Shown here one piece after another: positions 5,273 to 55,460 of a DNA stretch of 64,000 bases (position 1 is the stretch's first letter; each line of letters opens with the position of its first letter). A model generated the notes under the pieces. The model was not told where the DNA came from. It saw nothing but the letters and a program-made list of their open reading frames with translations, and did not search any database. Made by a program: the position numbers and the translations under genes. Source of the DNA: a virus (taxonomy: Duplodnaviria; Caudoviricetes); the IMG/VR virus record IMGVR_UViG_3300021375_000006. The stretch is one strand, 5' to 3'.

Positions 5273-5767
5273 ATGAGTATACGAATTGAGAAGACAGGAG
5301 GCCCATGGCCAGCAAACCGATACGGTATTGTTCTAAAGTACTTACCAAGATTCTTAAGAAAGTTTCTAATAACTCACAGGAATCTTGCTAAATGGTCTGA
5401 TGATGACCAATTCATGGAATGTGTTTTAAAGATACAGCGACCGAATTCTAGAACTAATACTAAGATTTATTGGGATATGATAAATGATAGAGCAATAGAT
5501 GAAAAAGGTCTAGAGCGTTCCTATAATACTATTGATTGGTATTGTGCCATCTCACTAAAACCTATTAGGGCTAAGTTTATGAATTTCGATTTAAAGAATT
5601 TCATACACCCTGAATATTACGATGTCTTAGAAGCGCCAATGGTGGATAGTCGTATACTTAAATCATCAGTTGACTTTCGCAAGAAATGCAAAAAACTCCT
5701 GCTCGCAGAACGAGAGGAGTTTCTTAAACTTGCTAAAAAGAACTCTAAGTCTAATTTATCTACTTAG
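5273..5767 (+). CDS. Hypothetical protein on the opposite strand
   Basis: 164 aa ORF filling the gap between minus-strand genes; GATAAATATA just upstream. Confidence 0.7.
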   Translation: MSIRIEKTGGPWPANRYGIVLKYLPRFLRKFLITHRNLAKWSDDDQFMECVLKIQRPNSRTNTKIYWDMINDRAIDEKGLERSYNTIDWYCAISLKPIRAKFMNFDLKNFIHPEYYDVLEAPMVDSRILKSSVDFRKKCKKLLLAEREEFLKLAKKNSKSNLST

Positions 5768-7790: not shown

Positions 7791-9176
7791 TTATAGTCTA
7801 AAACCTGCAACAGTAAATTTCTCGTATTGAGTTTGTGGGTGGAATCCAGCTTCAACTAATGCGTATCTAGATTTTACAGCTACTTTTGGAGCCATAGTAC
7901 CTTCAACGATAGCCTGTACTGATTCAGCCATTAAGTAAGGCATGAATACAAGACCTGGACCGTTACCGTCACCTTTTCTACCAACTAATACTTCACCAGA
8001 AGCGAAGTCAACTGAAGGGTCAGTATAGATGTTAATACCTGCTACAGAACCTAAAGGATAGATTGAACCTGCAACTTGGTTAACAGTGTTAGCCATTGGG
8101 TAAGCAACGAAACCTGCTACAGATTGTAAAGCAGATGCCATTTTACCACCTACAACAGCGAAGTTACCTGCACCTCTTCTACCACTTTGCGCGATTAAGT
8201 TCGCAGCAGCAAGGATTGAAGTTAAGATAGCTCTGTGTTGGTCAGCGATAGTTTCACCACCAGTTAAAGCACCAGCAGCAGGAATAGTAAATCCTAAACC
8301 GTTAGTAGTACCAGCGATAGATCTCATCTTAGTTAAGATGTGATTGTTGATAGACTGAGTTAATTCGTTAGTTAAAACTGCTTCTACTTGAGCAACAGCG
8401 TCAACACCGAATTGTTTAAGGTCTTGTACTTGCTCTCTAGTTACAGCAGCAGCTACTTGGAAAGTCTCTGCAGAAACTGATTTAGAGAATAAGCTTAAGC
8501 CCATTACTTTGTCTGGAGTTTGTTCCCCAACACCTCTATCGAAAGGAGCACCAGCATCGTTAGCACCAGAGAAACCAGGAATATGGTCTTCTAAAGCTTT
8601 TACTAATTCAGCACCATCATATCTAACTGAAATACTAGTTTCAGCTGGATCTGCAGTCGCATCTAATGCATCAACAATTCTGATGATTGATTTTCCGTCA
8701 ATTCTAGAAGTTCCAACTTTTACGTCGTTACCTGCAGCTACAGAATCTTTATCACCAAACTTGATGTAAGTTGGAGTTGTTGAACCAGCAGTCTTACCAC
8801 CTTCGTATACGAAGTCTAAGTAAGAAAGTAATCCCATTGGTCCAGCCATAGGTACAACAGGTACTAGGTCTAAACCGATTGTTTGAGCAGCAACTTGCAT
8901 TGCTAAAGGTAATAACGTTGGTGATTTGTCACCTGAACCGTCTGCACCTGCACCACCTTGGGCAGTATTGTTACCTCCTGGGTAGCTTGTTGCTCCCATA
9001 CCAAAGATGTTACCAGCAGTGCCTAAGGCCATGATGTTTGCATCTTCATAAAGCTTGTGATTGTGGCAGTATTCTGACATCCAAGCTAGTTTTGAGCTTT
9101 CGTTAATTCCAGTTGCTTCTTCGATAATCGGAGACCAAGTGTTTCTAACTTCAGCTTCATTAATTAAATTTGCCAT
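7791..9176 (-). CDS. Major capsid protein (T4 gp23-like)
   Basis: VVPMAGPMGLLSYLDFVY, AQVEAVLTNELTQSINNHIL, GRRGAGNFAVV, YMAE...TMAPKVAVKSRYALV. Confidence 0.97.
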   Translation of the reverse strand: MANLINEAEVRNTWSPIIEEATGINESSKLAWMSEYCHNHKLYEDANIMALGTAGNIFGMGATSYPGGNNTAQGGAGADGSGDKSPTLLPLAMQVAAQTIGLDLVPVVPMAGPMGLLSYLDFVYEGGKTAGSTTPTYIKFGDKDSVAAGNDVKVGTSRIDGKSIIRIVDALDATADPAETSISVRYDGAELVKALEDHIPGFSGANDAGAPFDRGVGEQTPDKVMGLSLFSKSVSAETFQVAAAVTREQVQDLKQFGVDAVAQVEAVLTNELTQSINNHILTKMRSIAGTTNGLGFTIPAAGALTGGETIADQHRAILTSILAAANLIAQSGRRGAGNFAVVGGKMASALQSVAGFVAYPMANTVNQVAGSIYPLGSVAGINIYTDPSVDFASGEVLVGRKGDGNGPGLVFMPYLMAESVQAIVEGTMAPKVAVKSRYALVEAGFHPQTQYEKFTVAGFRL

Positions 9177-11705: not shown

Positions 11706-12062
11706 TTAGACGCCTGCTAACGGATCTTCTTCTTCTCCGCCACCAGCATCTGCTTCGGCTTCTTTCTCTTCTTCCTTCTCTTGCTCAGCGTCCTCTGCCG
11801 ATTTATCTAAATAATATGCTACTAGAACATCCATCTCACCTTCAGCGAATGCATCTACTCCATACTCTCTATAGAAATACTCTTTAAATTCGCCCTCTGT
11901 TTTAGAAGAAGTAATAACTCCTAATATTTCAGCGGATTTGATTGTAGCACCAGAATCTAATTTTAAGTCTTCGACATAAATTTTAGAGTCTTCACCTGCC
12001 TTCATAGCGTCCTCTGCTATAAAATCTTCAAAGGTTTTAATTATTTTAAAATCGTTTTTCAT
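11706..12062 (-). CDS. Small acidic prohead-associated protein carrying the TFEDFIAE motif
   Basis: Between portal and protease, as T4 gp67/gp68 are. MKNDFKIIKTFEDFIAED; own late promoter. Confidence 0.55.
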   Translation of the reverse strand: MKNDFKIIKTFEDFIAEDAMKAGEDSKIYVEDLKLDSGATIKSAEILGVITSSKTEGEFKEYFYREYGVDAFAEGEMDVLVAYYLDKSAEDAEQEKEEEKEAEADAGGGEEEDPLAGV

Positions 12063-12095: not shown

Positions 12096-13691
12096 TTAAA
12101 GTGCATTCGGGTCCTCTTTCTCAGGCTCATCTGCATTATCTTTAGCCTCCTTTGCCTTATAGGCTTTGTTAGCTCTAATCTCGTCGTCAGTTAATTTTAA
12201 GTATTTAGTTACTAGATATTCTTGATCGAAATAGTATTCTTCTTCCATAGTTTCTGGATTAGTTGTCATTAGAGAGTCTCTCATGCTTGCGATAAAGTCT
12301 AATCTCAATTGCATGATTTCTTGCTCTTTTAATTCTGCAAATACATTCTCTTCATTATATCTTAATGCTACTTGAGTTTTAAACTGTGGATCGTCTACAA
12401 ACTCTGGGTACTTAAGACACATTTGAATATAAAGTGGTTTTACTAATATCTCTTGGAAGACTGATCTTAGACGCTTGATAAATTTACCAAACTTAATCTC
12501 ATCTCTTACCATACCGTCACCGGCTAGTGCGTAGTCACCACCATCATCTTCATATAAGAATCTATTGTAAGGAATTTTTGAAACCTCTTTTAATTTATCT
12601 GAGAAGTATTTAAGTGCTTCAGTGTCTGATAGATCTGGACCATCACCACCAAGGGTTTCAATTTCTGGCGTTTCACCATCTTTAGAAGGTAGCCAGTATT
12701 CTTTAGAGAATTGTAACATTGGCTTACCATCAGTTTCTAATGTTCCTGATTCAAAGTCAAAGTCTACAACTTCTTTATAGTTATTCATCAGCTGTGCTAA
12801 TGATTGTTTTGCTCTTGTTTTAGATTTACCACCAACAGGGATAATAAACTTCATTCTGAATGAAGCGTTCGTTACTGCCCATACCACTCTGGTATGTTCC
12901 ATAATTCTTAGTAAGTTAAAAGATCTTACTAGTCTCTCAACGTAACTTACTCTTGAAGCAGTTGAAAGGGAAGAATATGAAATGTAAATAATTTGAGAAT
13001 CATAAAGTACTCTCTCCTTTACAGGATCGTCTTTATATTGAATCCATACTTTCTTACCATCGTCTTTATTGTAACCTGGCATTAGAGTGATAGGATCGAT
13101 CTCTTTAAAACCTATAATCTCTTTTTGGTCTGGGGAATAAATTATCTCAAATGATAAGTAACCATCTACTAGGAATTTTCTAAAGAAGTACCATGCTGAT
13201 TGCTCACCATTAAATCCAAAGTAGTGATAGATTTGTCTAAAGTATTTGTTCAGGTCTTTGTTAACCTGGTCTGAGACATCAAGTCCCATAATCTCTGGTT
13301 GACAAAAGAAATTCTTTTCATTATATACCACTGCCTCGTCACAAAGAATATCTAGAATATCTTCAACCTCATCGTTCATTGAGAATCTTCTCAATTCATC
13401 TCTCTTACCTGGATAATCAATGTCAAAGAAAGGTACATTCTTCTTCATATTGATGTCACCCATTGATAGTGCTGCAAACGCACCATAGATGTCATCATTA
13501 TCTAAACCGAATGGATTCATTTCCTTATAGCCAAATTGGTCTTCCATTGGACCAATAGCTTGGGATTGACGTAGAACCATATCATCATAGCGCATACCAA
13601 AAGAACTTAGCGTCTTCAGTGCACTGGAGAGGCTAAATGGTCTTGTGTTAGAACTAAATGGTCCGTTTCTTTTATCTGCAAATCCTGCCAT
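12096..13691 (-). CDS. Portal vertex protein (T4 gp20-like)
   Basis: FRKFLVDG, IDP, SYVERLVRSFNLLRIME, YWLPSKDG...EIETLGG, YFSDKLKEVSKIP, RDEIKFGKFIKRLR. Confidence 0.97.
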   Translation of the reverse strand: MAGFADKRNGPFSSNTRPFSLSSALKTLSSFGMRYDDMVLRQSQAIGPMEDQFGYKEMNPFGLDNDDIYGAFAALSMGDINMKKNVPFFDIDYPGKRDELRRFSMNDEVEDILDILCDEAVVYNEKNFFCQPEIMGLDVSDQVNKDLNKYFRQIYHYFGFNGEQSAWYFFRKFLVDGYLSFEIIYSPDQKEIIGFKEIDPITLMPGYNKDDGKKVWIQYKDDPVKERVLYDSQIIYISYSSLSTASRVSYVERLVRSFNLLRIMEHTRVVWAVTNASFRMKFIIPVGGKSKTRAKQSLAQLMNNYKEVVDFDFESGTLETDGKPMLQFSKEYWLPSKDGETPEIETLGGDGPDLSDTEALKYFSDKLKEVSKIPYNRFLYEDDGGDYALAGDGMVRDEIKFGKFIKRLRSVFQEILVKPLYIQMCLKYPEFVDDPQFKTQVALRYNEENVFAELKEQEIMQLRLDFIASMRDSLMTTNPETMEEEYYFDQEYLVTKYLKLTDDEIRANKAYKAKEAKDNADEPEKEDPNAL

Positions 13692-36534: not shown

Positions 36535-37218
36535 CTAATTAATATTAATATGGATAATAACTTCGTTGTAGTATTCTAGGAAACGTTCGTTCCATAGGTT
36601 CCATTTAATATCAGTACCATCTATTGCATAAATTTCATGGTTAGGGAAAAGTTTAAGATATAAATCTCTAAAATGTCTGAATTTTTCTTTAGACTCTGGT
36701 GTGTTTAGATGCCACTCTCCGACTACAAAATCTACATTATCTTTTATCCAAAATAAATTATCGACGTTAAAAATATCATATTCTCCTCCTTCGCAATCTG
36801 TTTTTAAGAAGTTAATTCTATCAATATTATTTTCTTTTATTAGGGTATCGAACCTAATAGATGGTATTTCTATATTTTGTCCATTAGCACCAAATACTTC
36901 ACTAATAGTAATAGTACCATCTACTGGTCCGATACCCTTTTCAATAATGGTTACATTATCTTGGTATACATTTTCCTTTAGAGTCTCATGTTCTAAATGA
37001 GATGGCTCTACGCAAATAACTTGTTTTGGATCTTTATTAAGAATACTATATGTAAATGGACCGATGCTTGCTCCTATATCTAAAACAACATCATCGGCTT
37101 TTACCTCTCTAACCTGTTCATAACATTTATCAATAAAGATCTCTTGAACTAAAGAGTTTTTATGCATTTTAGCTAGATTGGTAAATTCGTCCATCCAGCC
37201 CCACTTAAAAATAGCCAT
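36535..37218 (-). CDS. FkbM-family SAM-dependent methyltransferase
   Basis: VVLDIGASIGPF, CVEP, FLKTDCEGGEY. Confidence 0.9.
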   Translation of the reverse strand: MAIFKWGWMDEFTNLAKMHKNSLVQEIFIDKCYEQVREVKADDVVLDIGASIGPFTYSILNKDPKQVICVEPSHLEHETLKENVYQDNVTIIEKGIGPVDGTITISEVFGANGQNIEIPSIRFDTLIKENNIDRINFLKTDCEGGEYDIFNVDNLFWIKDNVDFVVGEWHLNTPESKEKFRHFRDLYLKLFPNHEIYAIDGTDIKWNLWNERFLEYYNEVIIHININ

Positions 37219-37267
37219 ATAATTTTATTGGTATTATCTAGTTATACTCAAGAATGCTAGTTTGTTT

Positions 37268-37945
37268 CTAGAGTTCGTAGATAACCGGGACTCCATTTTC
37301 AATACAAAGATACTCATAAGGAAGTGTATCAATAAAATAGTGGTTATCATCATAGTCAATTTGATGCATGTGTGTATGTCCAGCGATTTGAATAATAGTA
37401 TCATCAAGAGGATTACGTCTTAGTGCTTCAGGTCTAATCCACATTGGACCTTCACCATCATAATTACCATACATTTCCATACCGCTATGATTAAATGATC
37501 TTTTATCATAAGACCAAAGATCATTAATCTGTTCTGAAATATTACCATCTTCTGGGAAATTGGCTTTATACCATTCTTTCGAAACACCAGCATGTGTAAA
37601 TAAAAACTTATCTACTTGATATGCAACTTGTAAGTGGTGCTTATTTTCTCTTAATAGTTCACTAATTTCAGCTGCGTGCCAAGCACTCCAACCACCATAC
37701 CTTCCTCCACAATCTGCCATGTAATGGAAATCATGGTTACCAATCAACATAGTTACTTTAATCTTTGACGCTTCTTTCCACTCAATGATTTCTTTAAAAT
37801 TAAAAATACACTCCGCATGGTTTCTAGTAAAAGAATCAAAGTAATCTCCGATGAATACAAATTCAGTCGCATCGCCATGTGCCTGCATAACTTGCTTCCA
37901 CTTGTTACAGCCATGAATATCTCCGATAACTACAATCTTACTCAT
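37268..37945 (-). CDS. Calcineurin-like metallophosphoesterase
   Basis: GDIHG, GDYFD, GNHD, THAG, GHTH. Confidence 0.92.
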   Translation of the reverse strand: MSKIVVIGDIHGCNKWKQVMQAHGDATEFVFIGDYFDSFTRNHAECIFNFKEIIEWKEASKIKVTMLIGNHDFHYMADCGGRYGGWSAWHAAEISELLRENKHHLQVAYQVDKFLFTHAGVSKEWYKANFPEDGNISEQINDLWSYDKRSFNHSGMEMYGNYDGEGPMWIRPEALRRNPLDDTIIQIAGHTHMHQIDYDDNHYFIDTLPYEYLCIENGVPVIYEL

Positions 37946-38121: not shown

Positions 38122-38147
38122 AGCCTGACATAAAAAAATATCAGGCT
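38122..38147 (-). terminator. Terminator of the 38-48 kb late operon, overlapping an early promoter
   Basis: AGCCTGA-N12-TCAGGCT followed by a T run on the minus strand. Confidence 0.75.
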
Positions 38148-38172: not shown

Positions 38173-39930
38173 TTATAGTGGCCAAATCATGGATGTGCCT
38201 GCATCATGCCATTCACTATACCACCCTTTTTTATTAAGTTCCTTTTCCCATTTGTTATCTACACCAAACGTTCTGTTCTTGTAGTCTTCAGAATAGTAGT
38301 CATAAATTTCTCTACCTTTATACTCATCGCCATTCTCACCTGAAACCCAGATACCACCTTGAGAACCGTTGAACTCTTCAGTAGTTCTTACAAAGTCCAT
38401 ATACTTTTCGATCCACTTAATCATAGCGTCTCTATCAAGTTTCTTTTCAGTAATAGGTTCTACAGATTCAAATGCAACTTCTTTATCAACTATTTCAAAA
38501 CTAACTGAATTATGAATACTTGTTTTTCTCTTCTTTTCTTTACCTTTACTTATTTCAACAAATGCTTCTTGTCCTCCAACTTCACCAGCAACTCTTTTAT
38601 AGAAATAACCATGCTCTGTTTTGATATATTCACCTACATTTACACTCATTGCCTCAGTAACTACAGATTCTGCAAATGCCTCAATATCCCACTGGATTCT
38701 TTGCATTGGGTCATCGTATGGGAATTCTTTCTCTACCCAGTCAATTAGACCTGGTTCAAACTCAGCGTTTTGAGCCATATCAAAAGCATTCTTCCAGCCA
38801 TCATTAGACGCTACATCCTCTAACCACTGGTCATACTTCTTTTGATTCCATCTCTTCATGGCTTTCTTTCTGTTCTTCTCAGCCTCTTTCTTCATGGCAT
38901 CTAATTTAGCCATGTCTGCTCTTCTAAGCTTATCTTGTCTTAGTCTGATTAGAACAGGATCGTTATAGTCCGTCGCCTCTGTCATCATTTCCTCTTGAGC
39001 GAACTTGTTATACTCTTTTGACCACTTCTTCCATTCAGCTGGAGTAGCATAATCTTCTAATACATCAACTACATCTCTGTTACCTTTTTGTTCAATAACT
39101 TGGTCTGCAATCCATCTACCTGCTTTTGCATTTAAGTAATAAAGTGCGCCTGCATCAGAGAATTTGTAAGATTCAGTTAACCATGCCATTGCAGAATGCC
39201 AGTTATCTTCAATCTCTCTACGTTTAAAACCTGCAAGTTCTAATGTACCCCAGAAACCATAGGCTTCATTTACATCGTCGATTGAGTATTGATTTTTCTT
39301 ACCGAACTTAAATGCTTCATTAACTAAAGATTCGCTAACAAAATTATTAAATTGTGTAAATAGTTTAAATCCTTCCATCTCTAGTTTCTTTTTTGTTTTG
39401 TCTTTTTTAGCCTCCTCTTCGTCATCATCAATATCTGCTACTGAAGGTACATCGCCAGAACCTATACCGCCATCAGAAGGTAGAACCACAGGGCCCATAC
39501 CGCCTATATTAGCACTAGGTGTAATATTTTGTGCTGCATGTGCAAAATCTTCATCCACAGCAACACCTCTCTTTTTTAAGATCTTTTCAATTTCTTGGTA
39601 AGCTCTCTTGTAATCAGATTTAGAGTAGTGCATTCCTTTAGCATAGTTAGCATAACCATCTAATGCTCCGTTATACATTCCTAGTAATTCTTCATCTGAC
39701 ATTTTATCATTGAATACAAATGGTCCAATAAATGCTTCATCTACCGTCTCTGGTAGTTTATCATGTTTTGTAGAAGCGTATTTCTTTAAGTCTTTCTTTG
39801 TCATTCCGTCTGATAATGATTTTACTTTGTCTCTATAAGCTGGGTCGATGTCTGAGATTTCCATATCACCGGATTTAACAGCGTATGCCATTCCCATTAA
39901 TCTTTGTTGTGACTTACTTACAGATGGCAT
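38173..39930 (-). CDS. Multi-module putative internal head polyprotein
   Basis: N-terminal SKSQQRLMGMA...KYASTKH module; modules bounded by TVDE, AVDE, ESLVNE, MMTE, ESVVTE and PITE; internal FTQFNNF motif. Confidence 0.6.
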   Translation of the reverse strand: MPSVSKSQQRLMGMAYAVKSGDMEISDIDPAYRDKVKSLSDGMTKKDLKKYASTKHDKLPETVDEAFIGPFVFNDKMSDEELLGMYNGALDGYANYAKGMHYSKSDYKRAYQEIEKILKKRGVAVDEDFAHAAQNITPSANIGGMGPVVLPSDGGIGSGDVPSVADIDDDEEEAKKDKTKKKLEMEGFKLFTQFNNFVSESLVNEAFKFGKKNQYSIDDVNEAYGFWGTLELAGFKRREIEDNWHSAMAWLTESYKFSDAGALYYLNAKAGRWIADQVIEQKGNRDVVDVLEDYATPAEWKKWSKEYNKFAQEEMMTEATDYNDPVLIRLRQDKLRRADMAKLDAMKKEAEKNRKKAMKRWNQKKYDQWLEDVASNDGWKNAFDMAQNAEFEPGLIDWVEKEFPYDDPMQRIQWDIEAFAESVVTEAMSVNVGEYIKTEHGYFYKRVAGEVGGQEAFVEISKGKEKKRKTSIHNSVSFEIVDKEVAFESVEPITEKKLDRDAMIKWIEKYMDFVRTTEEFNGSQGGIWVSGENGDEYKGREIYDYYSEDYKNRTFGVDNKWEKELNKKGWYSEWHDAGTSMIWPL

Positions 39931-39931
39931 A

Positions 39932-40474
39932 TTATTTTCCGTCTATTTGAATAACTTCGTTATCTCTAATTTCAAGATTGTTGTTACCAACTGATTCATC
40001 ATATTCACCGTAAATAACTTCACTTTTAGATGCTAATGGAGAATTCATCATTCCAGTCTTATCTATTTTTCTAGCGAATTTTTTACCGTTAACATCATCC
40101 ATAAAGCCTACGTTAATTACTACTTCGTATGAAAGATATAATGTGTTGTCCGGGTCTATATCATTTAAACCATTAACCTCATCTATAGCGAATCCATTAA
40201 AAAGATTGGCAGTAACAAATAAGATACCATCCATGCCACCTGCTCCTTTTTCTACTTGATCTAAAATGATCTTCTTAGCTTTATCTTCAAACTTAGCCCA
40301 CTCTTTATTAACTTCTTCTTGAGTTACTACATTAATACCTTCGTATTTTACTGTTTTAATTTCTTGTTTAAACGCTTGCATTACTTTACCTACAAGACCT
40401 TTAGCCGCGTAGATACCAGTCATTCTATATGACTTCTCGTTTAGGAATTGTTCGAATGTTGGAATTGTTTTCAT
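39932..40474 (-). CDS. Putative internal head protein with TFEQFLNE leader
   Basis: MKTIPTFEQFLNEK. Confidence 0.6.
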   Translation of the reverse strand: MKTIPTFEQFLNEKSYRMTGIYAAKGLVGKVMQAFKQEIKTVKYEGINVVTQEEVNKEWAKFEDKAKKIILDQVEKGAGGMDGILFVTANLFNGFAIDEVNGLNDIDPDNTLYLSYEVVINVGFMDDVNGKKFARKIDKTGMMNSPLASKSEVIYGEYDESVGNNNLEIRDNEVIQIDGK

Positions 40475-40491
40475 ATCTTATATTAGTTTTA

Positions 40492-42864
40492 TTACCAAGC
40501 GTAATCGAACTTCTCGATCTTGTTTATTCTTTCTTTAATTTGTTTCGCGTAGTTCTTAGATTCTCTTTCGTAGTAAGATTCTTTTTCGCCATATCTAGCT
40601 TCAGATTCTTCTGCTTGTCTAATGTAATCTACATATCTAGAATAGTCATCTAAAATATTTGACATGTGTTGAGATGCATCTTTTGCTTTTACTTCTTTAC
40701 CTTTTGCGTTTTCACCAATTTTGATTTCTTGGTATCTAGTCTTCTCACCTTTTGCTAAACCATCTGAGATTTGCTTAGCCAGTTTATCGATTGCATCTGC
40801 TACCATTTTATCTAGTGGTAAGCTTGCAGCTTTATTAGCTAAGATCTTGTGGTATCTATTTTGGTTAGCCTCTTTAAAGTCTTTATCAGATTTGAATGCT
40901 GTTGCACCGGCTTTAGCTTCTGCTCTTGCACTTCTTAATTGGTCAGTAGAATACTTTTGTCTAATTAATTCTAGGTTAATAACAATAACTCTATCGGACA
41001 TCTCTGCAATTCTCTTACCGTTGTTAAGACCTGATGCACCCCAACCCCTGTATTTGTGGTTGATACCGATTTGACCCTCAGAACCTTTTTTCTCTTTAGA
41101 CCAAGATCTACCACCTGACCATCTTGACCATTCATTAGCATAGAATTGTCTGTCACCAGACATAGCTGCTAATACAATACCTCCACCAGGAACCATTTTA
41201 TAGTCATTCCATGATCCGTTGTTATGGTCATAGTATGGATTTTCTTTCTCGTTATCTGAGATAAAGAAAAGTACGTGGCTTGAACCGCCGTAGTTTTTAA
41301 ATATCTTTGATACATCGTTGCTAATAATAAAATCTTCATCTTCGATTTTATCAAGAGCTACTTTAGATAGGTTGTAAAAACCTTTAGCTAAATTAGAAAG
41401 ATTTTTCTTACTTTCTTTACCCTCTCTACCGTTCGATAGAACTGTTCTTAATATAGAGGATTTGATTGCTTCGTTAAGAAAGTTAGCTCCAACGAAGTCG
41501 CTAAATGACTCAAACAAGTTTATTTCGTTTTTCATATTTGTATTTTCTTCTAGTTTTTTAGCAGCTAAATCTTTATCTCTTTTGGATACGTTATCTAGGT
41601 AAGAGCCGTCTCCCCAGAATTTAACAACTAATTCAGTTTGAGTAGTTGAATGCATACCTGGTTTGTAAACTGCAATATCTCTTAATTTCTTGTTAGAAGC
41701 AATGGTTTGCTTCATGAAGTCAAGAGCTTGTTTCTCGTTTCTAAACTTTTTCATAGCACTTACACCGTCACTATAGATAACTTCATAGTTTTCAGTAACT
41801 GCAGATTCTTCTAAATATAAGTTTACATATTTACTACCTTTTTCTGAGTAAATTGAAGTAATTTTAAAATCACCTTTAATTGATTTACCAGTATCTTTTT
41901 TATACCAATCTGCATAATAAGCTTTAAAGAATAAGTTTGGTTCTAGTTCTCCAAAGAAGTGTGAAAGTTTACCTAAATAAAATTCAGCTTTAGGATATAC
42001 TTTTAAAATATCTTTTTCTGTTTCAGCATCTAGAACTGCTTTATCAAATTCTTTTACAAATTTAGCTTCAGTAACTTTTGACTCATCCACTCTCTTGATA
42101 GTATCGTGGAACCAATCTTCTGGCTCATCTCTATAATCAGTGTAAACATCAATTTCCCATTCATCACCGAATTGGTCAACGCCAACATAATACCAATCTT
42201 TGCCCTCGTTACCGTGGTCGTCAATAATATCACCTTGGTCAAACTCTACTTCATACTTCTTACCACCATCTTTAAATTCAATATATGGGAATTTATCTTT
42301 AGTAACTTTGATCTTCTCGTTTACTACTGACTCTTCGATATACTCGGCTAAATCTGGATCGTCCCATCCAAGTTCTGGATCTGCTAGTACTTTTTCAAGA
42401 TCCTTTCTCTTACCCTGCATTGTGATAACTGGAGTACCACCGCCTGGACCGTCCATTACTTTATTGATAATCTTAACTTTATTCTTCTTTAAGAATTTTA
42501 AGAAGTCTTTATCATCAGGGTTAATTGCATCCATCTCTACTGTAGCCTCAAATACCTCAGCAGCTTTAGGAGTTTCATCTAGCTCAGCTAGAATTCTACG
42601 TCCCCATTTTGAAAGCTTTACACCATCTTCAGAAACATTAAAGTACTTTCTATTTCTAGAAGCCCATTGATTTGAACTAGTAGATAATTCAGAAAGAATC
42701 TTATTGAATTCTTCTCTTGTTACCACGCCATCTGCAATTGCCTGTAAGACTGCGTTTCTTACGCTAGCAGTTTTACCTACAGTTTGAGCAGGGTGGTTCT
42801 CTGTATATTTTCTTTTGATTTGCAATTTCTTGCCTTCCGATAAAAAGTCTTCGAAGTTTATCAT
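40492..42864 (-). CDS. Multi-module putative internal head polyprotein
   Basis: MINFEDFLSE leader; linkers EVFE, ESVVNE, ESKVTE, ESAVTE; internal MKNEINLFESFSDF...FLNE. Confidence 0.6.
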   Translation of the reverse strand: MINFEDFLSEGKKLQIKRKYTENHPAQTVGKTASVRNAVLQAIADGVVTREEFNKILSELSTSSNQWASRNRKYFNVSEDGVKLSKWGRRILAELDETPKAAEVFEATVEMDAINPDDKDFLKFLKKNKVKIINKVMDGPGGGTPVITMQGKRKDLEKVLADPELGWDDPDLAEYIEESVVNEKIKVTKDKFPYIEFKDGGKKYEVEFDQGDIIDDHGNEGKDWYYVGVDQFGDEWEIDVYTDYRDEPEDWFHDTIKRVDESKVTEAKFVKEFDKAVLDAETEKDILKVYPKAEFYLGKLSHFFGELEPNLFFKAYYADWYKKDTGKSIKGDFKITSIYSEKGSKYVNLYLEESAVTENYEVIYSDGVSAMKKFRNEKQALDFMKQTIASNKKLRDIAVYKPGMHSTTQTELVVKFWGDGSYLDNVSKRDKDLAAKKLEENTNMKNEINLFESFSDFVGANFLNEAIKSSILRTVLSNGREGKESKKNLSNLAKGFYNLSKVALDKIEDEDFIISNDVSKIFKNYGGSSHVLFFISDNEKENPYYDHNNGSWNDYKMVPGGGIVLAAMSGDRQFYANEWSRWSGGRSWSKEKKGSEGQIGINHKYRGWGASGLNNGKRIAEMSDRVIVINLELIRQKYSTDQLRSARAEAKAGATAFKSDKDFKEANQNRYHKILANKAASLPLDKMVADAIDKLAKQISDGLAKGEKTRYQEIKIGENAKGKEVKAKDASQHMSNILDDYSRYVDYIRQAEESEARYGEKESYYERESKNYAKQIKERINKIEKFDYAW

Positions 42865-42866
42865 AA

Positions 42867-43250
42867 TTATGCTTTAATTTTTGCTAGTTTACCCTGTTTC
42901 TCTTCATACTGGAATGAGAACTTAGACTTTGCGAAAAGTGTTCCCATTGAGAATGAGACATAAACTCCGTCTGGTTTTTTCATAGCAGTCTTATATGCTT
43001 CTGCTGCAGCAGCCTCATCGTCAAAAATACCAATGTATTGTTTCTTGCTACCACCATTCTCTAGTCTAATTCTTTGACCATAGAAGTCTACTTCATTGTG
43101 AGCAAATACTAAATACTTTGTATTACCTTTTTCTGGTAGGTTGTCGCTATGCTCTCCAAATGAAGTTCTATCATTGTAGTAGTAAGAACCAAATTGAATA
43201 GACTCATTTACTGAATCTCTGAAGCCTTCGAATGTTTTTATGTTTTTCAT
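42867..43250 (-). CDS. Putative internal head protein with TFEGF leader
   Basis: MKNIKTFEGFRDSVNES. Confidence 0.6.
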   Translation of the reverse strand: MKNIKTFEGFRDSVNESIQFGSYYYNDRTSFGEHSDNLPEKGNTKYLVFAHNEVDFYGQRIRLENGGSKKQYIGIFDDEAAAAEAYKTAMKKPDGVYVSFSMGTLFAKSKFSFQYEEKQGKLAKIKA

Positions 43251-43269
43251 ATTAATATGCTATATTTGT

Positions 43270-45129
43270 TTATATATTCTTTAAAAAATCATCGAAGGTT
43301 AGGAATTCTGGTTGTGCAGATTCTGCAGCAACACCCATCGAGTCTTCTAATTTCATTTTAAGTTCTCCATACATACCATGTATATCCTTAGGAGTTAATT
43401 TCTTAAATAGTCTTTCGTCACCATCAAGCATTGCGTTTCTAACCTGAGTTGCTGAAATATTCTTGCCTGATCTTGGAATTTCAAATAAACCAAAATCGTC
43501 TCTTACACCTAGATCGTCTCTGTATTCTTGTTTATCTGCTTGATAACTATAGACTTTCATTCTATCAGTTCCAGTTCCCCATAATACTGGCTCGTATTGT
43601 GGTCTTAATTCATTAAACATTTTATCAATTGCTGCAGTAGGTAAAATCTTTACATCTTCAATTGGATAAGAAGATTTTAATTTTTGTAACATTGATAGTT
43701 GAGTCTCTTCGTCGTAAGGTCTCTTGAATGCATCTTCTGCTTTCTTAGTTTTAGACTTAATTAAAAAGATAACTACTGGATAACCGTTTTGTTTATAGAT
43801 AGTTTCAATAACTTTAGCGTGTCCTAATGTAAATGGTTGAAATCTACCAACAAACATATTTACAGGCTTCTTACCTTGATCTTTATACTTAACAGTTAAG
43901 CCTTCCATGATTGGACTAACTTGAGCTGAAATTTTTTGGTTTAATAAATATTGTTTAAAATCCATTACGTCTGATTCATTTGCTTTTGCCATTATTAAAC
44001 CCTCAATGGTTTCAACGATCTCGTTGATCTGCTCCATTAAATCTTTATTAATAAGGTCGGTTTCTTTAGTTCTCTTTTTTCTAAAAGAGCCTAATACAAT
44101 CTTAAATAACTCAGATAATATCTTATCTTGTACTAAAGTAAGTGTCTTTTCGTTTTGAATAAACTTATTATTTAATTCAAACATAGGAGATTCAGAAAAG
44201 TCTGCAGAGTCAAATTTAGCACCAATATATTTTGTAGCATTTTTTTCTACATAATTATTAAAAATAGATGACATTAATTCTAAATATCTTCTATCTACCT
44301 TTCCTTCTTTTAATTCTATTGATGAGAAATCAAATTGTACTAAATGTTCTACAACATCTAAAATTGTAATTTGATACATGTCTGATGGTTTTCTTGGATC
44401 CATCGGTTTTTTATTAAACTTCTCTAATTTAAAAGATTGTAATTCTGTTCCGTCATGAAAATTAATAATAAACCCTGCAACATCTTTTGAAAGATCGTTC
44501 ATTAAAGCAGATTGCTTCATATTCTCATTAAAAATACCGAATACTGTTCTTGTAAAGCTAGGCTTCTCAAAGTCTTCAAATGTCTGTTCAAATTCATTAA
44601 CCGACATTGCAAGAATTTGTTTTAATCTATCCTTTTGACCTGAGTCAAGTTGACCTTCAAATAATATAGGTGGTTTTGAAACATTTAGTTTATCCGCCCA
44701 CTTATTAAGTATTTTGGTATCTCTAATTACCTTTCTAACTTTATTAGGATTAGATGGTTGTAAAACTTGTATATGCGTTAAAATTAAATTTGATTCTGGT
44801 AAAACATCATACTCCACATCAATTGTTTTATTATCGCCAAGATATTCAAATCCAAACTTCCAGTCAAATGGCATATCTTCTATAACTTCTTTAGAAACAG
44901 ACTTAAAGTGGCGAATTGCGTTCTCATAGTATCTGACAATTGTACGATCTACTATATCCATTGGTTGCTTAGAACCAGATTTATAGTATGCAAAATCAGT
45001 ACCTTGTCTTCTTGCATGAAAAGATGAACCGTTGATTTTCTCAGTCACAATACATTTGTGGTTAAGTAGTTTATCAACGTCTGCTGTGTTAGCTCCTTCG
45101 AAATATGTTTTTAAATTGTCTAATGCCAT
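43270..45129 (-). CDS. Ligase-fold nucleotidyltransferase-like domain fused to an HxGH-type (cytidylyltransferase-like) domain
   Basis: N-terminal VTEKINGSSF; C-terminal FVGRFQPFTLGH...GTDR...ISATQVRNA. Confidence 0.75.
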   Translation of the reverse strand: MALDNLKTYFEGANTADVDKLLNHKCIVTEKINGSSFHARRQGTDFAYYKSGSKQPMDIVDRTIVRYYENAIRHFKSVSKEVIEDMPFDWKFGFEYLGDNKTIDVEYDVLPESNLILTHIQVLQPSNPNKVRKVIRDTKILNKWADKLNVSKPPILFEGQLDSGQKDRLKQILAMSVNEFEQTFEDFEKPSFTRTVFGIFNENMKQSALMNDLSKDVAGFIINFHDGTELQSFKLEKFNKKPMDPRKPSDMYQITILDVVEHLVQFDFSSIELKEGKVDRRYLELMSSIFNNYVEKNATKYIGAKFDSADFSESPMFELNNKFIQNEKTLTLVQDKILSELFKIVLGSFRKKRTKETDLINKDLMEQINEIVETIEGLIMAKANESDVMDFKQYLLNQKISAQVSPIMEGLTVKYKDQGKKPVNMFVGRFQPFTLGHAKVIETIYKQNGYPVVIFLIKSKTKKAEDAFKRPYDEETQLSMLQKLKSSYPIEDVKILPTAAIDKMFNELRPQYEPVLWGTGTDRMKVYSYQADKQEYRDDLGVRDDFGLFEIPRSGKNISATQVRNAMLDGDERLFKKLTPKDIHGMYGELKMKLEDSMGVAAESAQPEFLTFDDFLKNI

Positions 45130-45137
45130 AATAGTTT

Positions 45138-46409
45138 TTATCTACCGTATTTAATAATACCCATTAACTGGTTAATAGCGGCAAAAGTTCCAGTTAACTT
45201 GAATGTTTTACCATTGTATTTAAAGACTAGGCCTTCTGTTGGAATGATTGACTCAATACCGCCGATACCTTCTAGTCTCTTTAATTCTTTTTCTACTTTC
45301 TCAATTTGTTTTAGATCTCCGTTCTTTTTAACTTTGTCAGCTTCAGTTCTGATTTGCTTATGTAATCTTGCTTTCTCAGCCTCTGGGTTAGCAGCAACAA
45401 AATTAGAAACGTTCTTTAAAACATCTGCACCTAATTCTAAAAATAGGTTCTCGAAAGGTAGAATGTTTTCTTTATACTTCTTATTTCTTTGACCATCAAA
45501 ATCTTTGACAGCTTTTGCTTGTTCTGGAGTAACTGCTTTCTTTAAGTCTCTCATATTTAGAGTCTTCTTGTCTAAGTATGCCCATCTTAATAGAAGTCCT
45601 TCTTTTAATACTGGGTCTAAATCCCCAAAGTTCTCTTCGATTTGGTTTCTCCACCAAGCCTCGTGATACATTTTAACCTCATCTTGATCTGATAGACTAT
45701 AAGTATCTCTTAGTTTATTTATCGCCTTTTCGTAATAGCCGACTCTCTCATCAAAGTTAATATCTTTTCCTAACTTTAAAATTTGAGGGGGAATTATTGT
45801 AAAGGTCTTTTGCACATCAGCTTTTAACTCTCTAAGTGCTTTTACAATCTCACCTGCAATATTCTCTTCACCTATGATATTACCAGCACCATCAGTAACT
45901 TTCATACCGTGGAATTGAATAACATCTCTGTCATAATAGATTACATTAGGATTCTTAGAGTAAATTAGCTCCATGTTGATAAATGAGTTACCATCTTGGA
46001 ATACAGATTGGTCCTTAAGCTTTGGGAGCGCATCTGCTAGATCTTTAGCAGCAAAGATAAATGTTTCTTCAACCAGCTTTGAAGCATGGCCAGTAAACAT
46101 CTTAATGATACCATTTAGGTCGAGTGGATTAGCTAGTTGCCCTTTATTTCTAGCGAACATAGCTTTACCATCTTTTACAGTTGCAAATACATTCTGACCA
46201 TCTGTCTTTTCAGTTGGTGCCTCTTCAAAATCAAGACCTCCTTGTAGTGCAGACTTTACAATTCTCTTGAAATCTGCAAACGTTAATGAGTGGTCATCGA
46301 ATGGGTGCATCATGTGACCAGCGGCACCACCTTCAAATACGAAATTGTCCAAGTTATTGACCTGGACTTTCTCGTTTAAGAATTCTTTAAATGTATATAG
46401 TTTCTTCAT
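45138..46409 (-). CDS. ATP-dependent ligase-fold (RNA ligase-like) nucleotidyltransferase with TFKEFLNE leader
   Basis: EGGAAGHMMHPFD; motif I EKTDG, III NMEL, IIIa IQFH, IV EGLVF, V KTFKL. Confidence 0.7.
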   Translation of the reverse strand: MKKLYTFKEFLNEKVQVNNLDNFVFEGGAAGHMMHPFDDHSLTFADFKRIVKSALQGGLDFEEAPTEKTDGQNVFATVKDGKAMFARNKGQLANPLDLNGIIKMFTGHASKLVEETFIFAAKDLADALPKLKDQSVFQDGNSFINMELIYSKNPNVIYYDRDVIQFHGMKVTDGAGNIIGEENIAGEIVKALRELKADVQKTFTIIPPQILKLGKDINFDERVGYYEKAINKLRDTYSLSDQDEVKMYHEAWWRNQIEENFGDLDPVLKEGLLLRWAYLDKKTLNMRDLKKAVTPEQAKAVKDFDGQRNKKYKENILPFENLFLELGADVLKNVSNFVAANPEAEKARLHKQIRTEADKVKKNGDLKQIEKVEKELKRLEGIGGIESIIPTEGLVFKYNGKTFKLTGTFAAINQLMGIIKYGR

Positions 46410-46428
46410 AAGAAGTTTTAGATTGTTT

Positions 46429-47967
46429 TTATCCTAATGATGATTGTAATGCACCAACTGCTGCACCATAGTCACCGTCGTGTTTAGTTAATAAACCGTC
46501 TACTACTTCTTGAGCTTTTTCTTCATCGAATTCGTCACCGAACGCTTGTTGTAAAACTGAGAATGCATACTCTTTAAAATCTTCGTCTGATTTTACTTCA
46601 GCTTCGTTAGTAGCTTCTTCAGCAACTTCTTCAGTTTCTTCTACTTCTTCAGTTTCTTCTACTTCTTCAGTCTCTTCAACCTCTTCAGTTTCTTCTACTT
46701 CTTCAGTCTCTTCAACCTCTTTAGTTTCTTCTACTTCTTCACCTTCTTCAGTAGCTTCACCTTCTTCGTGGTGTGCTTCTTCAGTAGATTCTGTTTCTTC
46801 TTCAACTTCTTCTCCCTCTTTAATTACAGGATAAGTCTTACCGTTAAACTCAAACTTTTCAGCATCTTCTTCGATTGCTTTAGCTCTTGCGGCTAAAAAA
46901 GCGTTACCTTCATTCATCACAGACTCGTTAGCCCAGATTAATTCAAATGCATCTACAATTTTTTGAGCAGTATCACCATGTCCGAATCCATCTAAGAATA
47001 ATGCCATACCTTCAACGATACCAATACCTGACCATCCAGCTGCATTAGCTAGACCAGAGTAATGTTCGTCTAATAGGTTAATGATTGATTTTTTACCAAC
47101 TGGAACTGACATTCCACCTAAATTATCGATGTCTACCATAATAGTAACAATCTTACCACCTAGTGCTTTACTTACTGGATCTCTATATCTGTGGAAGTTA
47201 GCGTCTGTTAGGGCTTCAGCTAATAAGTATCTACAAACACCTAATAAAAGTGGTCCGTCCATTAATGCAGTATGGTTCGTAAAGAATGATTCTAACCATT
47301 TAGCAACTTTCTTAGCGTCTCTTGCATTACCTTTACTTGGTTTAAATGCTTCATTAATAATTAGTGACTCAAATGCTGGAATTAATTCTTTATCTCCATA
47401 TACATCTGCCATATACCATTTGCCATCTCTTTCATCAAATAGGTAAACGAATTCTGCTCCTGCTCTATCGCTAGCATCAGAAATATAATCGTCGACTTTC
47501 TTAACATCACCTTTTAGTGTTGTTTTATCTCCGTAGAAATTAATCTTACTTGGATCTGCTTCCAAACCTGAGCCACCCCCTTTCTTAAGTAAAAACTTAA
47601 CTGTTCCGGAGTTCATGTAACCCTTCTTAATTGTAGGTAACATGTGGTCTGGATAACCATCGTAGTGCATATACACTGACTCTATTTTTCCTCTTTTAGA
47701 AATAATACCAACTTGTGATCTGGTACCTTCTTCAATGATAGCTAAAGACTCAGATACTTCAGAAGCACCTAGCTTAGCAAAAAATTTGTTTCTATCTTCT
47801 TCGTTTAAATCTTTTACAGATGTAACGCCGAACTCAGATAATAATGTTTCGAATTGGTAAGCTGACTCTGTACGAGCTACTTTTTGTTCTTCTTCTAATT
47901 TCATTTTTGCTGCTTTAGCGGAAGCATTAGCGAAATCTTCAAAAGACTGTAGTTTTAATGAACCCAT
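46429..47967 (-). CDS. Multi-module putative internal head polyprotein with acidic repeats
   Basis: SFEDF leader; modules after AIIEE, ESLIINE, ESVMNE and ATNE; contains a GTRS...VYMHYDGYP module and a GNAF module; late promoter at 48004. Confidence 0.6.
   Translation of the reverse strand: MGSLKLQSFEDFANASAKAAKMKLEEEQKVARTESAYQFETLLSEFGVTSVKDLNEEDRNKFFAKLGASEVSESLAIIEEGTRSQVGIISKRGKIESVYMHYDGYPDHMLPTIKKGYMNSGTVKFLLKKGGGSGLEADPSKINFYGDKTTLKGDVKKVDDYISDASDRAGAEFVYLFDERDGKWYMADVYGDKELIPAFESLIINEAFKPSKGNARDAKKVAKWLESFFTNHTALMDGPLLLGVCRYLLAEALTDANFHRYRDPVSKALGGKIVTIMVDIDNLGGMSVPVGKKSIINLLDEHYSGLANAAGWSGIGIVEGMALFLDGFGHGDTAQKIVDAFELIWANESVMNEGNAFLAARAKAIEEDAEKFEFNGKTYPVIKEGEEVEEETESTEEAHHEEGEATEEGEEVEETKEVEETEEVEETEEVEETEEVEETEEVEETEEVAEEATNEAEVKSDEDFKEYAFSVLQQAFGDEFDEEKAQEVVDGLLTKHDGDYGAAVGALQSSLG
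46610..46810 (-). repeat. Coding tandem repeat (EEVEET)n
   Basis: About six 18-bp units, the same unit type as in the scaffold gene. Confidence 0.9.
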
Positions 47968-48003: not shown

Positions 48004-49512
48004 TTATATATCACCGTCAAAAGTCACATTTTTTACCTCAAACGGGAACTTCTGTTCCTTATAGATCTTTTGACGCGCTTTGGCATGTCGAATGAGATAG
48101 TTATCCCAGTCTGGTGATGATAAGTCATCTACGAAATCAATGATATTTACCTCTGATTTTGTGTGGTGTTTTCTTAACCCTCTACCGATTGATTGTCTAA
48201 TTATGACTTCCGATTTAAACGATTCGGTAAAGAAGATATTATGTATTTTCTTAATCGAGATCCCTGTTGAGAACGTACCATAAGAGGCAACAATGACAAC
48301 CTGCGCGCCTGCTTCCATCTTCTTCTTGTATTCTTCACGGATGTCCTTGTCGGTATTACCATCCACATAATAGATGGGTTTGTCACTATCTTGGCGCAGT
48401 TTCTCATAAATTCTTTTGCCGTGTTCGATTCGGTGGAAAAGAACAAGGCTATTCCCACGTACTCTGGAAATAATGTTGCAAATGAAAGCCAAGCGCCCTG
48501 TTGAATTGATGACATAATTACTTTCAAATCTGAAAACGTCTTTACTTTCATATCTGTTTTGGGACATCTCATAAAAAGCATTCTTTGTGCTTTGAGGTGC
48601 ATAATCCATTTTTATTACTTTCACATTACAACCTGCAATGTGACCTTCATCTTGAAGGAATGCCGCATTGACCTCTGTAATTACAGGGCCTGTATGTGCC
48701 ATTAGGGTTAATCTATCTAACGTCTTTGCTTTTGGAATTGTCCCCGAGAGTCCAAATCGATAGTTTGCAGCAGTACATTTTTGTAGAATTGTTTTAATAG
48801 AGGTAGACTTAGCCTTGTGAGTCTCATCGATAATTACAGCGTCAAACTGTTCAAAATATTCTTTGTCTTTCTTAACAAGAGATTGATACGTACCAATTAC
48901 CATGTTTCTACCCGGTCTAATCTTTTGACCAGAATAGATCTGTTGTACCTTAATATTCGTTGCATTACGCCAGTTATAGTCCATAAAGTCCTCAGAGGCC
49001 TGTACAACTAACGAAACGTTTGGGACGATAAGTAATATCCTTCCAGCCTTGCCCTTCTCTAACATATACGCAATAGCCATATACGTTATCAAGGTTTTAC
49101 CAGCTGATGTGGCTAACTCACTTAGACATCTTCTAAATTTTAGAATATTATATGCCGCTTCAATTTGATAATCTCTTGGGTTTAATTCATGGCCATCAAA
49201 GTAGTCTTCTGCCCATTTTGTAAACTCTTCTTGTTTTACCGAAGGGTCGAATAGTGTGGTTACACCATTCATCTTTAACTCGAACTTATATTGTTTACAC
49301 AGATCCATCACCTCTTTCCAAAGTCCAGATGGAATCCACTTATCATCCTTAATATAGGAGATATAGCCATCCCATAGACCTTTCTTCACAAGAGGATGAA
49401 AGCGCCAGTTTTCAATTCTACGATTAAATGTGATATTGAGTTGTTCTATTTCTAGTTCACTCGCCTCATCAATACGCAGAAACTGCTTATTATCTGTTAA
49501 ACTCAGTTCCAT
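48004..49512 (-). CDS. uvsW: SF2 DNA helicase UvsW
   Basis: PRDYQ, ATSAGKT, IIDETH, GLSGT, TFSTGISI, QSIGRGLR. Confidence 0.95.
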   Translation of the reverse strand: MELSLTDNKQFLRIDEASELEIEQLNITFNRRIENWRFHPLVKKGLWDGYISYIKDDKWIPSGLWKEVMDLCKQYKFELKMNGVTTLFDPSVKQEEFTKWAEDYFDGHELNPRDYQIEAAYNILKFRRCLSELATSAGKTLITYMAIAYMLEKGKAGRILLIVPNVSLVVQASEDFMDYNWRNATNIKVQQIYSGQKIRPGRNMVIGTYQSLVKKDKEYFEQFDAVIIDETHKAKSTSIKTILQKCTAANYRFGLSGTIPKAKTLDRLTLMAHTGPVITEVNAAFLQDEGHIAGCNVKVIKMDYAPQSTKNAFYEMSQNRYESKDVFRFESNYVINSTGRLAFICNIISRVRGNSLVLFHRIEHGKRIYEKLRQDSDKPIYYVDGNTDKDIREEYKKKMEAGAQVVIVASYGTFSTGISIKKIHNIFFTESFKSEVIIRQSIGRGLRKHHTKSEVNIIDFVDDLSSPDWDNYLIRHAKARQKIYKEQKFPFEVKNVTFDGDI

Positions 49513-55088: not shown

Positions 55089-55460
55089 TTAGAATCTTTT
55101 ACCCATCGCAGCACCTAGAGCGGCACCGACTAATCTGGAAGTTAATAGATCGTAGAATATACCTTTTTGAATACCTAGTACTTTGGCTAACATCTTACCG
55201 ATAGATTTTCCTAGTGCAAAACCAGTTAAACCACCGATGATAGAACCTAAAAGACCCTCTTCAACTAGATCTTCTTCTAATCTATCTAAATCAAATTCAC
55301 CAGTCTCTTCATTTAAGTATTGTTTCACAAACTCTTCTAGAGCTTGGTCAACTTTTTCCTCTAATTCAGGAGTCCACTCAGACTGTAGGCCTTCTGTTAA
55401 TAGAGCCATATCAGTTTCTGTGAGTTGTTGTTCAACTAAGTAATCATTAAATGTTTTCAT
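55089..55460 (-). CDS. Putative internal virion protein: acidic TFNDY leader region plus C-terminal glycine-zipper helix
   Basis: MKTFNDYLVE...LVEE-GLLGSIIGGLTGFALGKSIGKMLAKVLG...LVGAALGAAMG. Confidence 0.6.
   Translation of the reverse strand: MKTFNDYLVEQQLTETDMALLTEGLQSEWTPELEEKVDQALEEFVKQYLNEETGEFDLDRLEEDLVEEGLLGSIIGGLTGFALGKSIGKMLAKVLGIQKGIFYDLLTSRLVGAALGAAMGKRF

Follow-up and report, generated by a model that had tools for sequence, protein, structure and literature searches.

The internal proteins of bacteriophage T4 are the textbook case of proteins that are injected with the DNA to disarm host defenses, and the 10-residue T4 address peptide is used for loading foreign proteins into capsids. 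The proteins IPI, IPII, IPIII, and Alt carry a capsid targeting sequence (CTS) and are processed by gp21 (Mullaney and Black 1996, reviewed in PMC9026906 and PMC3012670). IPII and IPIII start with MKTYQEFIAE and IPI starts with MKTFKEF (sequence comparison in this analysis); capsid targeting requires no more than the first 10 residues of IPIII, with residues 4 and 7 contributing to targeting and residues 8 and 10 to processing (reviewed in PMC9026906). Asp in place of Glu at position 10 of the T4 sequence abolishes processing and leaves targeting intact. Each cargo protein of T4 has a separate gene and loses one short propeptide, and Alt loses one per end. Here we describe a cluster of seven genes (positions 38173-47967) in a 64,000-nucleotide stretch of a huge uncultured T4-type phage (IMG/VR virus record IMGVR_UViG_3300021375_000006; Duplodnaviria; Caudoviricetes); this stretch is referred to below as the window. 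We propose, with a probability of roughly two in three, that this cluster corresponds to the internal-protein cargo locus of T4, with its cargo units joined into precursors that the head protease would cut at leader-derived linkers.

Two other described systems are comparable. In phages phiKZ, 201phi2-1, and SPN3US, a gp21-related protease (gp175 or gp245) cuts many ejection and inner-body proteins of the head after Glu, at several sites per substrate, with built-in redundancy (PMC10052503, PMC9026906). These multiple cuts, at the motif S/A-x-E, degrade long N-terminal propeptides, so that a single mature protein remains; neither a T4-type leader nor an exchange of modules is described for these phages. 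In the polyvalent proteins of phages and conjugative elements, two to fifteen disparate, unrelated domains are joined in one delivered polypeptide and extensively shuffled (Iyer, Burroughs, Anand, de Souza, Aravind 2017, PMC5512222). Their release into units, by the logic of viral polyproteins, was proposed to be carried out by an embedded metallopeptidase (MPTase), and LPD, ART, ParB, methylase, and other domains were catalogued in them (PMC5512222).

The cluster resembles the T4 system in its type of leader (e.g., KTFEDFIAE, FEQFLNE, and FEDFLSE), in its protease family (i.e., S77, with conserved His and Ser), in the form of the predicted site (i.e., a putative cut after Glu with a hydrophobic residue at P3, two residues before that Glu), and in its small, diverse, fast-changing cargo genes, seven of which stand in tandem in one relative. 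Unlike T4, it joins up to seven units per chain with internal processing halves of leaders as linkers, its units are exchanged between three paralogous chains, and most of them are acidic rather than basic. It shares the predicted cutting of many proteins after Glu with phiKZ and SPN3US, whereas P3 here is V, I, L, or M and the pieces between sites look like separate folded modules with free-standing homologues. Pfam scans of the whole polyproteins and of single modules revealed neither a peptidase nor an LPD or other catalogued domain of the polyvalent proteins (the best match was LPD34, with an E value of 0.09 and 12.8 bits versus a cut-off of 27); unlike in the polyvalent proteins, release would thus be via the capsid's maturation protease at leader-derived sites. 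We found no description of natural polyproteins built of leader-linked cargo units in the searchable literature.

An earlier reading of the window, made without database searches (the sequence-only reading), had described three long minus-strand open reading frames (ORFs) as strings of 60- to 140-residue segments joined by one recurring type of linker. The coordinates of the three ORFs were exact (585, 790, and 512 residues), and every linker was found where that reading had placed it. The size range was too narrow for the C-terminal module of the second protein (325 residues). The proteins, their modules, and their linkers are as follows.

38173-39930, minus strand: polyprotein P0001, 585 residues; modules A1 (1-65, DUF3008), A2 (66-205), A3 (206-318), A4 (319-426), A5 (427-495), and A6 (496-585)
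P0001 residues 62-65: linker TVDE
39316-39378, minus strand: internal leader-like stretch plus linker (P0001 residues 185-205), MEGFKLFTQFNNFVSESLVNE
P0001 residues 200-205: linker ESLVNE
P0001 residues 315-318: linker MMTE
38653-38670, minus strand: linker ESVVTE (P0001 residues 421-426)
38446-38469, minus strand: linker ESVEPITE (P0001 residues 488-495)
40492-42864, minus strand: polyprotein P0002, 790 residues; leader (1-10) and modules B1a (11-106), B1b (107-183), B2 (184-266), B3 (267-358), B4 (359-465), and B5 (466-790)
42835-42864, minus strand: N-terminal leader of the capsid-targeting type in P0002, MINFEDFLSE
42316-42333, minus strand: linker ESVVNE (P0002 residues 178-183)
42067-42084, minus strand: linker ESKVTE (P0002 residues 261-266)
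41791-41808, minus strand: linker ESAVTE (P0002 residues 353-358)
41470-41535, minus strand: internal fossil N terminus and leader before module B5, MKNEINLFESF...FLNE (P0002 residues 444-465)
46429-47967, minus strand: polyprotein P0003, 512 residues; modules C1 (1-80), C2 (81-206), C3 (207-353), C4 (354-455, scaffold-like element and acidic repeats), and C5 (456-512)
47728-47751, minus strand: linker ESLAIIEE (P0003 residues 73-80)
47350-47370, minus strand: linker ESLIINE (P0003 residues 200-206)
46909-46926, minus strand: linker ESVMNE (P0003 residues 348-353), followed by a GNAF..ARA.AI element common with the scaffold
P0003 residues 452-455: linker ATNE

The linker peptides stand as first described, while their form is better given as a tandem site (i.e., hydrophobic-x-E followed by S-x-V-[NT]-E). 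The pattern ES-x(2-4)-[NTE]-E is present in 5 of the 56 ORFs of the window (i.e., the three polyproteins, the protease-scaffold gene, and, as one loose Pro-containing match, the ORF at 45138-46409) and in none of the other 51. In shuffles of the three polyprotein ORFs, the strict motif (6 observed) occurred with a mean of 0.12 and the loose motif (9 observed) with a mean of 0.85, and neither observed count was reached in 20,000 shuffles. A scan of IMG/VR with the three proteins yielded 108 related loci on contigs of up to 256 kb, the relatives being metagenomic contigs. Across these loci, ESxx[NT]E was found 1.95 times per 1,000 residues in the homologues versus 0.075 times in other ORFs (i.e., a 26-fold enrichment), and scrambled control patterns exhibited no enrichment in the homologues. 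The motif is therefore not due to chance.

Across 109 distinct linker contexts from the relatives, V, I, A, or L stands two residues before the first Glu in 79. Ser and a variable position come next, after which V (73 of 109), N or T, and a second Glu precede A, G, or K. Alignments A2 and A3 were built from full-length homologues, and a fragment-stacked MAFFT alignment (A1), in which fragments were misplaced, was discarded. E73, E80, and E206 of P0003 are invariant and its E200, E348, and E353 are at least 90% conserved (alignment A2). In P0002, E10 of the leader is nearly invariant (alignment A3). The codons of the nine window linkers differ at synonymous positions, with Ser encoded by TCN in the polyproteins versus AGY in the scaffold copies. 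This synonymous variation, which extends to both families of Ser codons, implies that selection acts on the peptide and not on the DNA; it also rules out that the linkers are conserved as a recombination signal in the DNA.

These contexts also bear on the possibility that ES-x-V-[NT]-E is a conserved flexible connector produced by gene fusions, and that the chains remain intact, in or outside the virion. Phage N4 provides a precedent, since it packages its virion RNA polymerase, with an MPTase peptidase domain, unprocessed (PMC5512222). However, a connector would not need both Glu residues, a hydrophobic P3, and a small residue after the cut (P1') to be kept across 109 contexts while the codons drift. 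Moreover, it is at this peptide that the T4 leader is cleaved in experiments, and the peptide also occurs in the phage's own scaffold, a canonical protease substrate. We therefore regard uncleaved multidomain proteins as an improbable explanation.

The linker is recognizably the processing half of a T4-type CTS. A pattern in which residues 4 and 7 are aromatic, residue 8 is hydrophobic, and residue 10 is Glu was found at the start of P0002 and of four other proteins of the window (i.e., orf180, orf127, a 423-residue protein, and orf118). Leaders within the cluster include FEQFLNE, FEDFLSE, FKEFLNE, and FEGFRDSVNE. The leader of orf118, which includes KTFEDFIAE and is nearly identical to that of T4 IPIII, served as an internal positive control for the pattern. 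Two further ORFs outside the cluster (5756-7684 and 55089-55460) carry leaders. The four remaining genes of the cluster and the leader-carrying genes elsewhere in the window are as follows.

39932-40474, minus strand: orf180, 180-residue protein with the leader MKTIPTFEQFLNE
42867-43250, minus strand: orf127, 127-residue protein with the leader MKNIKTFEGFRDSVNE
43270-45129, minus strand: 619-residue protein; C-terminal half NMNAT/cytidylyltransferase-like, leader-like C terminus LTFDDFLKNI, KINGSSF motif
45138-46409, minus strand: 423-residue protein with the T4-type leader MKKLYTFKEFLNE and a KTDG motif read by eye
11706-12062, minus strand: orf118, 118-residue acidic protein at the gp67/gp68 position between portal and protease, with the leader IIKTFEDFIAE
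5756-7684: orf642, 642-residue protein adjoining the capsid gene; leader-like KLFEEFAAGE at residues 9-17, no family match
55089-55460: 123-residue protein; leader MKTFNDYLVE, C-terminal stretch hydrophobic, Gly-rich, and membrane-active in appearance

In the related loci, [FY]xx[FY][LIVMA]xE is 14-fold denser in the first 25 residues of ORFs than elsewhere. Modules B5, C2, and A6 have free-standing homologues in which a full leader takes the place of the polyprotein linker and stops exactly where the module starts. Those of B5 begin with MKxxFxFESFxEFTESLNE, followed by the module; those of C2 begin with MNNIKNFNDFINESQEINE and then GTRSQ, where P0003 has ESLAIIEE and then GTRSQ; and those of A6 begin with MKKVKLFEQFLNE at the place of ESVEPITE in P0001. 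Within the polyproteins themselves, a fossil Met and leader precede the next module at residues 444 to 465 of P0002 (F454 and F457 nearly invariant, E465 invariant; alignment A3) and at residues 185 to 205 of P0001. The internal Met and full leader before B5 could also serve for initiating translation internally, as happens in T4 gene 21. At the corresponding cluster of the related locus L066 (13503-16605 on a 166-kb contig), seven tandem genes encoding 79 to 294 residues start with MKHIKLFEQF.NE or a close variant, and this array is apparently a set of unfused cargo genes. The leaders of the free-standing homologues, the fossil leaders, and the L066 array together indicate that the polyproteins arose by head-to-tail fusion of cargo genes with leaders. 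The connection to the capsid is stronger than was known to the sequence-only reading, because four cluster proteins carry T4-type leaders and the linker takes the place of the leader of free-standing homologues.

The three proteins, with five to seven modules per chain, were divided at their linkers into 17 modules, each of which was searched against the related loci. Approximately 60 different architectures were found, and modules cross between all three protein families (B3, B4, or B1b in P0003-type proteins; A3, C2, and C3 in P0002-type proteins). BLAST alignments begin at residue 1 of a module, right after a linker, and stop at the next linker. The sequence-only reading had expected modules to match standalone genes and to stand in shuffled order in related phages, and both expectations hold. 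Several modules match standalone genes (DUF3008, phrog_8020, phrog_5922, phrog_1987, and AlphaFold DB proteins). The relatives contain 24 distinct pairs of directly abutting modules, most of the nonnative ones with a linker exactly at the joint, as in 11 of 11 instances of B3-C5, B4-C5, B4-A3, B2-B1b, B1b-B4, B4-B1b, and B1b-C5. An assembly or frameshift artifact is ruled out, since the architecture recurs on dozens of independent contigs. Single-linkage clustering of the segments between sites placed everything in one cluster and was uninformative. In a phage collection, neither megablast with the region nor tblastn with P0002 or P0003 gave a match, and P0001 matched solely via its DUF3008 module. 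A search with B5 returned 97 environmental proteins, none of which had a telling name or domain.

AlphaFold models of P0002 and P0003 were built on 39 to 42 full-length homologues and reached predicted template modeling (pTM) scores of 0.33 to 0.35 (P0002, 0.33). The predicted local distance difference test (pLDDT) score falls below 50 at residues 68 to 80, 201 to 207, and 385 to 453 of P0003 and at residues 10 to 29, 97 to 102, 180 to 185, 260 to 287, and 456 to 461 of P0002. These segments coincide with sites or fall within four residues of them; confidence collapses at 8 of the 10 predicted sites and is lowered next to one more. Predicted folds that span the linkers had been named as grounds for refuting the sequence-only reading, and the linkers are mostly of low confidence, as that reading requires, while the P0003 site at 348 to 353 lies inside a predicted continuous helix (residues 331 to 366; pLDDT, 60 to 69). 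This helix speaks for the connector explanation described above.

Residues 81 to 198 of module C2 align to approximately 20 free-standing AlphaFold DB proteins from residue 2 of those proteins (TM scores by hit of up to 0.65; root mean square deviation [rmsd], ~3 Å), and a predicted cut at this place would therefore restore a native N terminus. No convincing structural match was obtained for the other modules. Foldseek searches against the PDB gave no match at an E value of ≤0.001 for either model, those of P0002 against AlphaFold DB clusters gave high-rmsd rows and nothing else, and the ESM Atlas feature search led from C2 to unnamed viral clusters and from B5 to nothing. The 17 predicted products have masses of 6 to 37 kDa, and B1a of P0002, a winged helix with an isoelectric point (pI) of 9.7, is the sole module with a recognizable fold.

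A T4-type head module, which also includes orf118, is encoded in the window, in which nearly all coding is on the minus strand and the G+C content is ~34%.

12096-13691: portal (phrog_213)
9284-11644, minus strand: P0004, prohead protease (Peptidase_S77, gp21-like, residues ~22-138) fused to a long acidic scaffold
7791-9176, minus strand: gp23-type major capsid protein (MCP), N terminus MANLINE-A

The protease matches PF03420 (E value, 1.5e-12) and PDB entry 5JBL (E value, 4.7e-5). In a BLASTP comparison with T4 gp21, LGELDHP aligns with LGELNHP and ISSRAAG with VSSRGLG, so that the catalytic His and Ser are kept; the protein is a gp21 homologue that we judge to be intact. The nearest relatives of the MCP are those of an uncultured 462-kb phage (48% identity) and of Lak megaphages (36% identity). 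The start of the MCP (MANLINE-A) and the scaffold sites noted previously are present, the latter as QINESLVTE and SINESAVKAEE in the scaffold part of the protease fusion. This part contains 5.7 [LIVM]xE triplets per 100 residues versus ~2 elsewhere. The polyproteins and the protease-scaffold protein of this phage have the linker type in common. An element of ~45 residues in P0003 (GNAF..ARA.AI..KF) matches residues 526 to 576 of P0004 (38% identity over 53 residues; E value, 3e-8), and some relatives carry the scaffold version of this element nearly letter for letter. Acidic EEVEET repeats occur both after the third linker of P0003 and in the scaffold.

The features common with the scaffold raise the question of whether the polyproteins are accessory proteins of the prohead core, which would enter the prohead and be cut there but have their pieces discarded, like the fragments of T4 gp22, gp67, and gp68, and deliver no payload. 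The P0003 element and acidic repeats, the density of the motif in the scaffold, and the acidity of most products fit this explanation. However, the predicted products are folded domains of 6 to 37 kDa, while T4 discards short peptides, and the modules are hypervariable and exchangeable, like the internal proteins of T-even phages and unlike conserved core proteins. Homologues of module A1 are also found in mature cyanophage virions. The cultured Synechococcus phage S-SCSM1 encodes one (ORF93, DUF3008; 49% identity), and both ORF93 and ORF91 of this phage were detected in virions via mass spectrometry (PMC9602691). ORF91 (L111:8820-10049) is NMNAT-like, exhibits 27% identity to the C-terminal half of the 619-residue cluster protein, and starts with MKSFLQFLKE and then A; the presence of an enzyme in the S-SCSM1 virion proteome would be accounted for by this T4-type leader. 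On balance, a role confined to a discarded core seems unlikely.

The sequence-only reading had placed a late promoter before the cluster and a terminator behind it.

48004-48012, minus strand: promoter-like motif GATATATAA directly upstream of the first gene of the cluster
38122-38147, minus strand: terminator-like hairpin and T-run after the last gene
1659, 7712, 9274, 11667, 12066, 13712, 17541, 18444, 30521, 48004, 52441, 53090 (plus strand), and 61068: copies of GATATATAA

The 13 copies of GATATATAA in the window compare with 1.7 expected, and 12 of them are on the coding strand. The motif stands upstream of the portal, orf118, protease-scaffold, MCP, and orf642 genes and once before the cluster, and it is likely a late promoter. 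The T4 late promoter TATAAATA is absent from the window (0 versus 11 expected). Thus, the late promoter at 48004 is upheld as a match to GATATATAA but not as one to the T4 sequence, and the terminator holds as a motif match (a hairpin and then a T-run from 38147 to 38122).

This promoter motif, common with the head genes, speaks against another explanation, according to which the polyproteins are cut in the cytoplasm by another protease of the host or the phage and are never packaged. The cluster does lie beside replication and repair genes and contains enzyme-like proteins, as such an explanation would have it. However, family searches recognized no other protease in the cluster, the site fits the specificity of gp21-type enzymes, and the leaders fit the T4 capsid address. 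We consider cytoplasmic cutting very improbable.

Several observations weigh against the proposal that the cluster encodes capsid cargo precursors. P0001 has no N-terminal leader, and that of P0003 (SFEDFANA) is degenerate and lacks the closing Glu. Most predicted products are acidic (pI 4 to 6), unlike the basic T4 internal proteins. Many further hydrophobic-x-E triplets lie within modules, and the helix across residues 348 to 353 of P0003 belongs here as well. The cluster adjoins uvsW, holds enzyme-like genes, and sits outside the head-gene block. In the original form of the proposal, the precursors were packaged and cut into many small proteins for ejection. The independent and exchangeable modules, the linker of prohead-protease-site form, the gp21 homologue, and the capsid leaders support this in part; packaging, cleavage, retention, ejection, and any anti-host role are inferred by analogy with T4.

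If the cargo-precursor reading is correct, cargo would be addressed to the core of the assembling prohead by a T4-type CTS (i.e., aromatic-x-x-aromatic-hydrophobic-x-Glu) and trimmed after Glu by the gp21-type head protease. In three genes, many cargo units would be fused head to tail, with each fusion point keeping the processing half of the leader (i.e., hydrophobic-x-E and S-x-V-[N/T]-E in tandem, with A, G, or K after them). A single precursor would enter the head via one leader, or via the scaffold-like element, and would there be cut into five to seven folded proteins of 6 to 37 kDa. Being too large to leave the shell, these products would remain inside along with the DNA and be carried into the host together with it. 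More tentatively, and with somewhat less than even confidence, we suggest a scheme of combinatorial cargo loading, in which the processing half of the capsid address acts as a universal joint for fusing, swapping, and copackaging injected proteins (presumably for antidefense or takeover) as one late precursor, in sets of fixed stoichiometry that the protease would release in the capsid. If so, the injected proteins of large marine T4-type phages would be far more numerous, and more interchangeable, than gene counts suggest, and a large pool of small domains of unknown function would become candidate early-acting effectors. The leader and linker would also provide a simple sequence rule for predicting virion cargo in metagenomes, as well as a template from nature for packing several proteins into the same capsid.

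The remaining observations concern individual genes. The acidic tail of orf118 resembles T4 gp67. The enzyme-like 423- and 619-residue proteins encoded between the polyproteins may be packaged enzymes. The former has no Pfam, PHROG, or NCBIfam family match, and its identity as an RNA ligase was rejected, as it has no similarity to T4 RnlB and the assignment came solely from a KxDG motif read by eye. An RNA ligase reading of the N-terminal half of the latter likewise came solely from a KxNG motif read by eye. Just downstream of the cluster (36535-37945) are two genes resembling those for a metallophosphoesterase (phrog_246/8238) and a methyltransferase (phrog_8156), which, with the ligase-like genes, might constitute a set for RNA repair. 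Finally, the 123-residue protein encoded at 55089-55460 is possibly a packaged membrane-acting protein.

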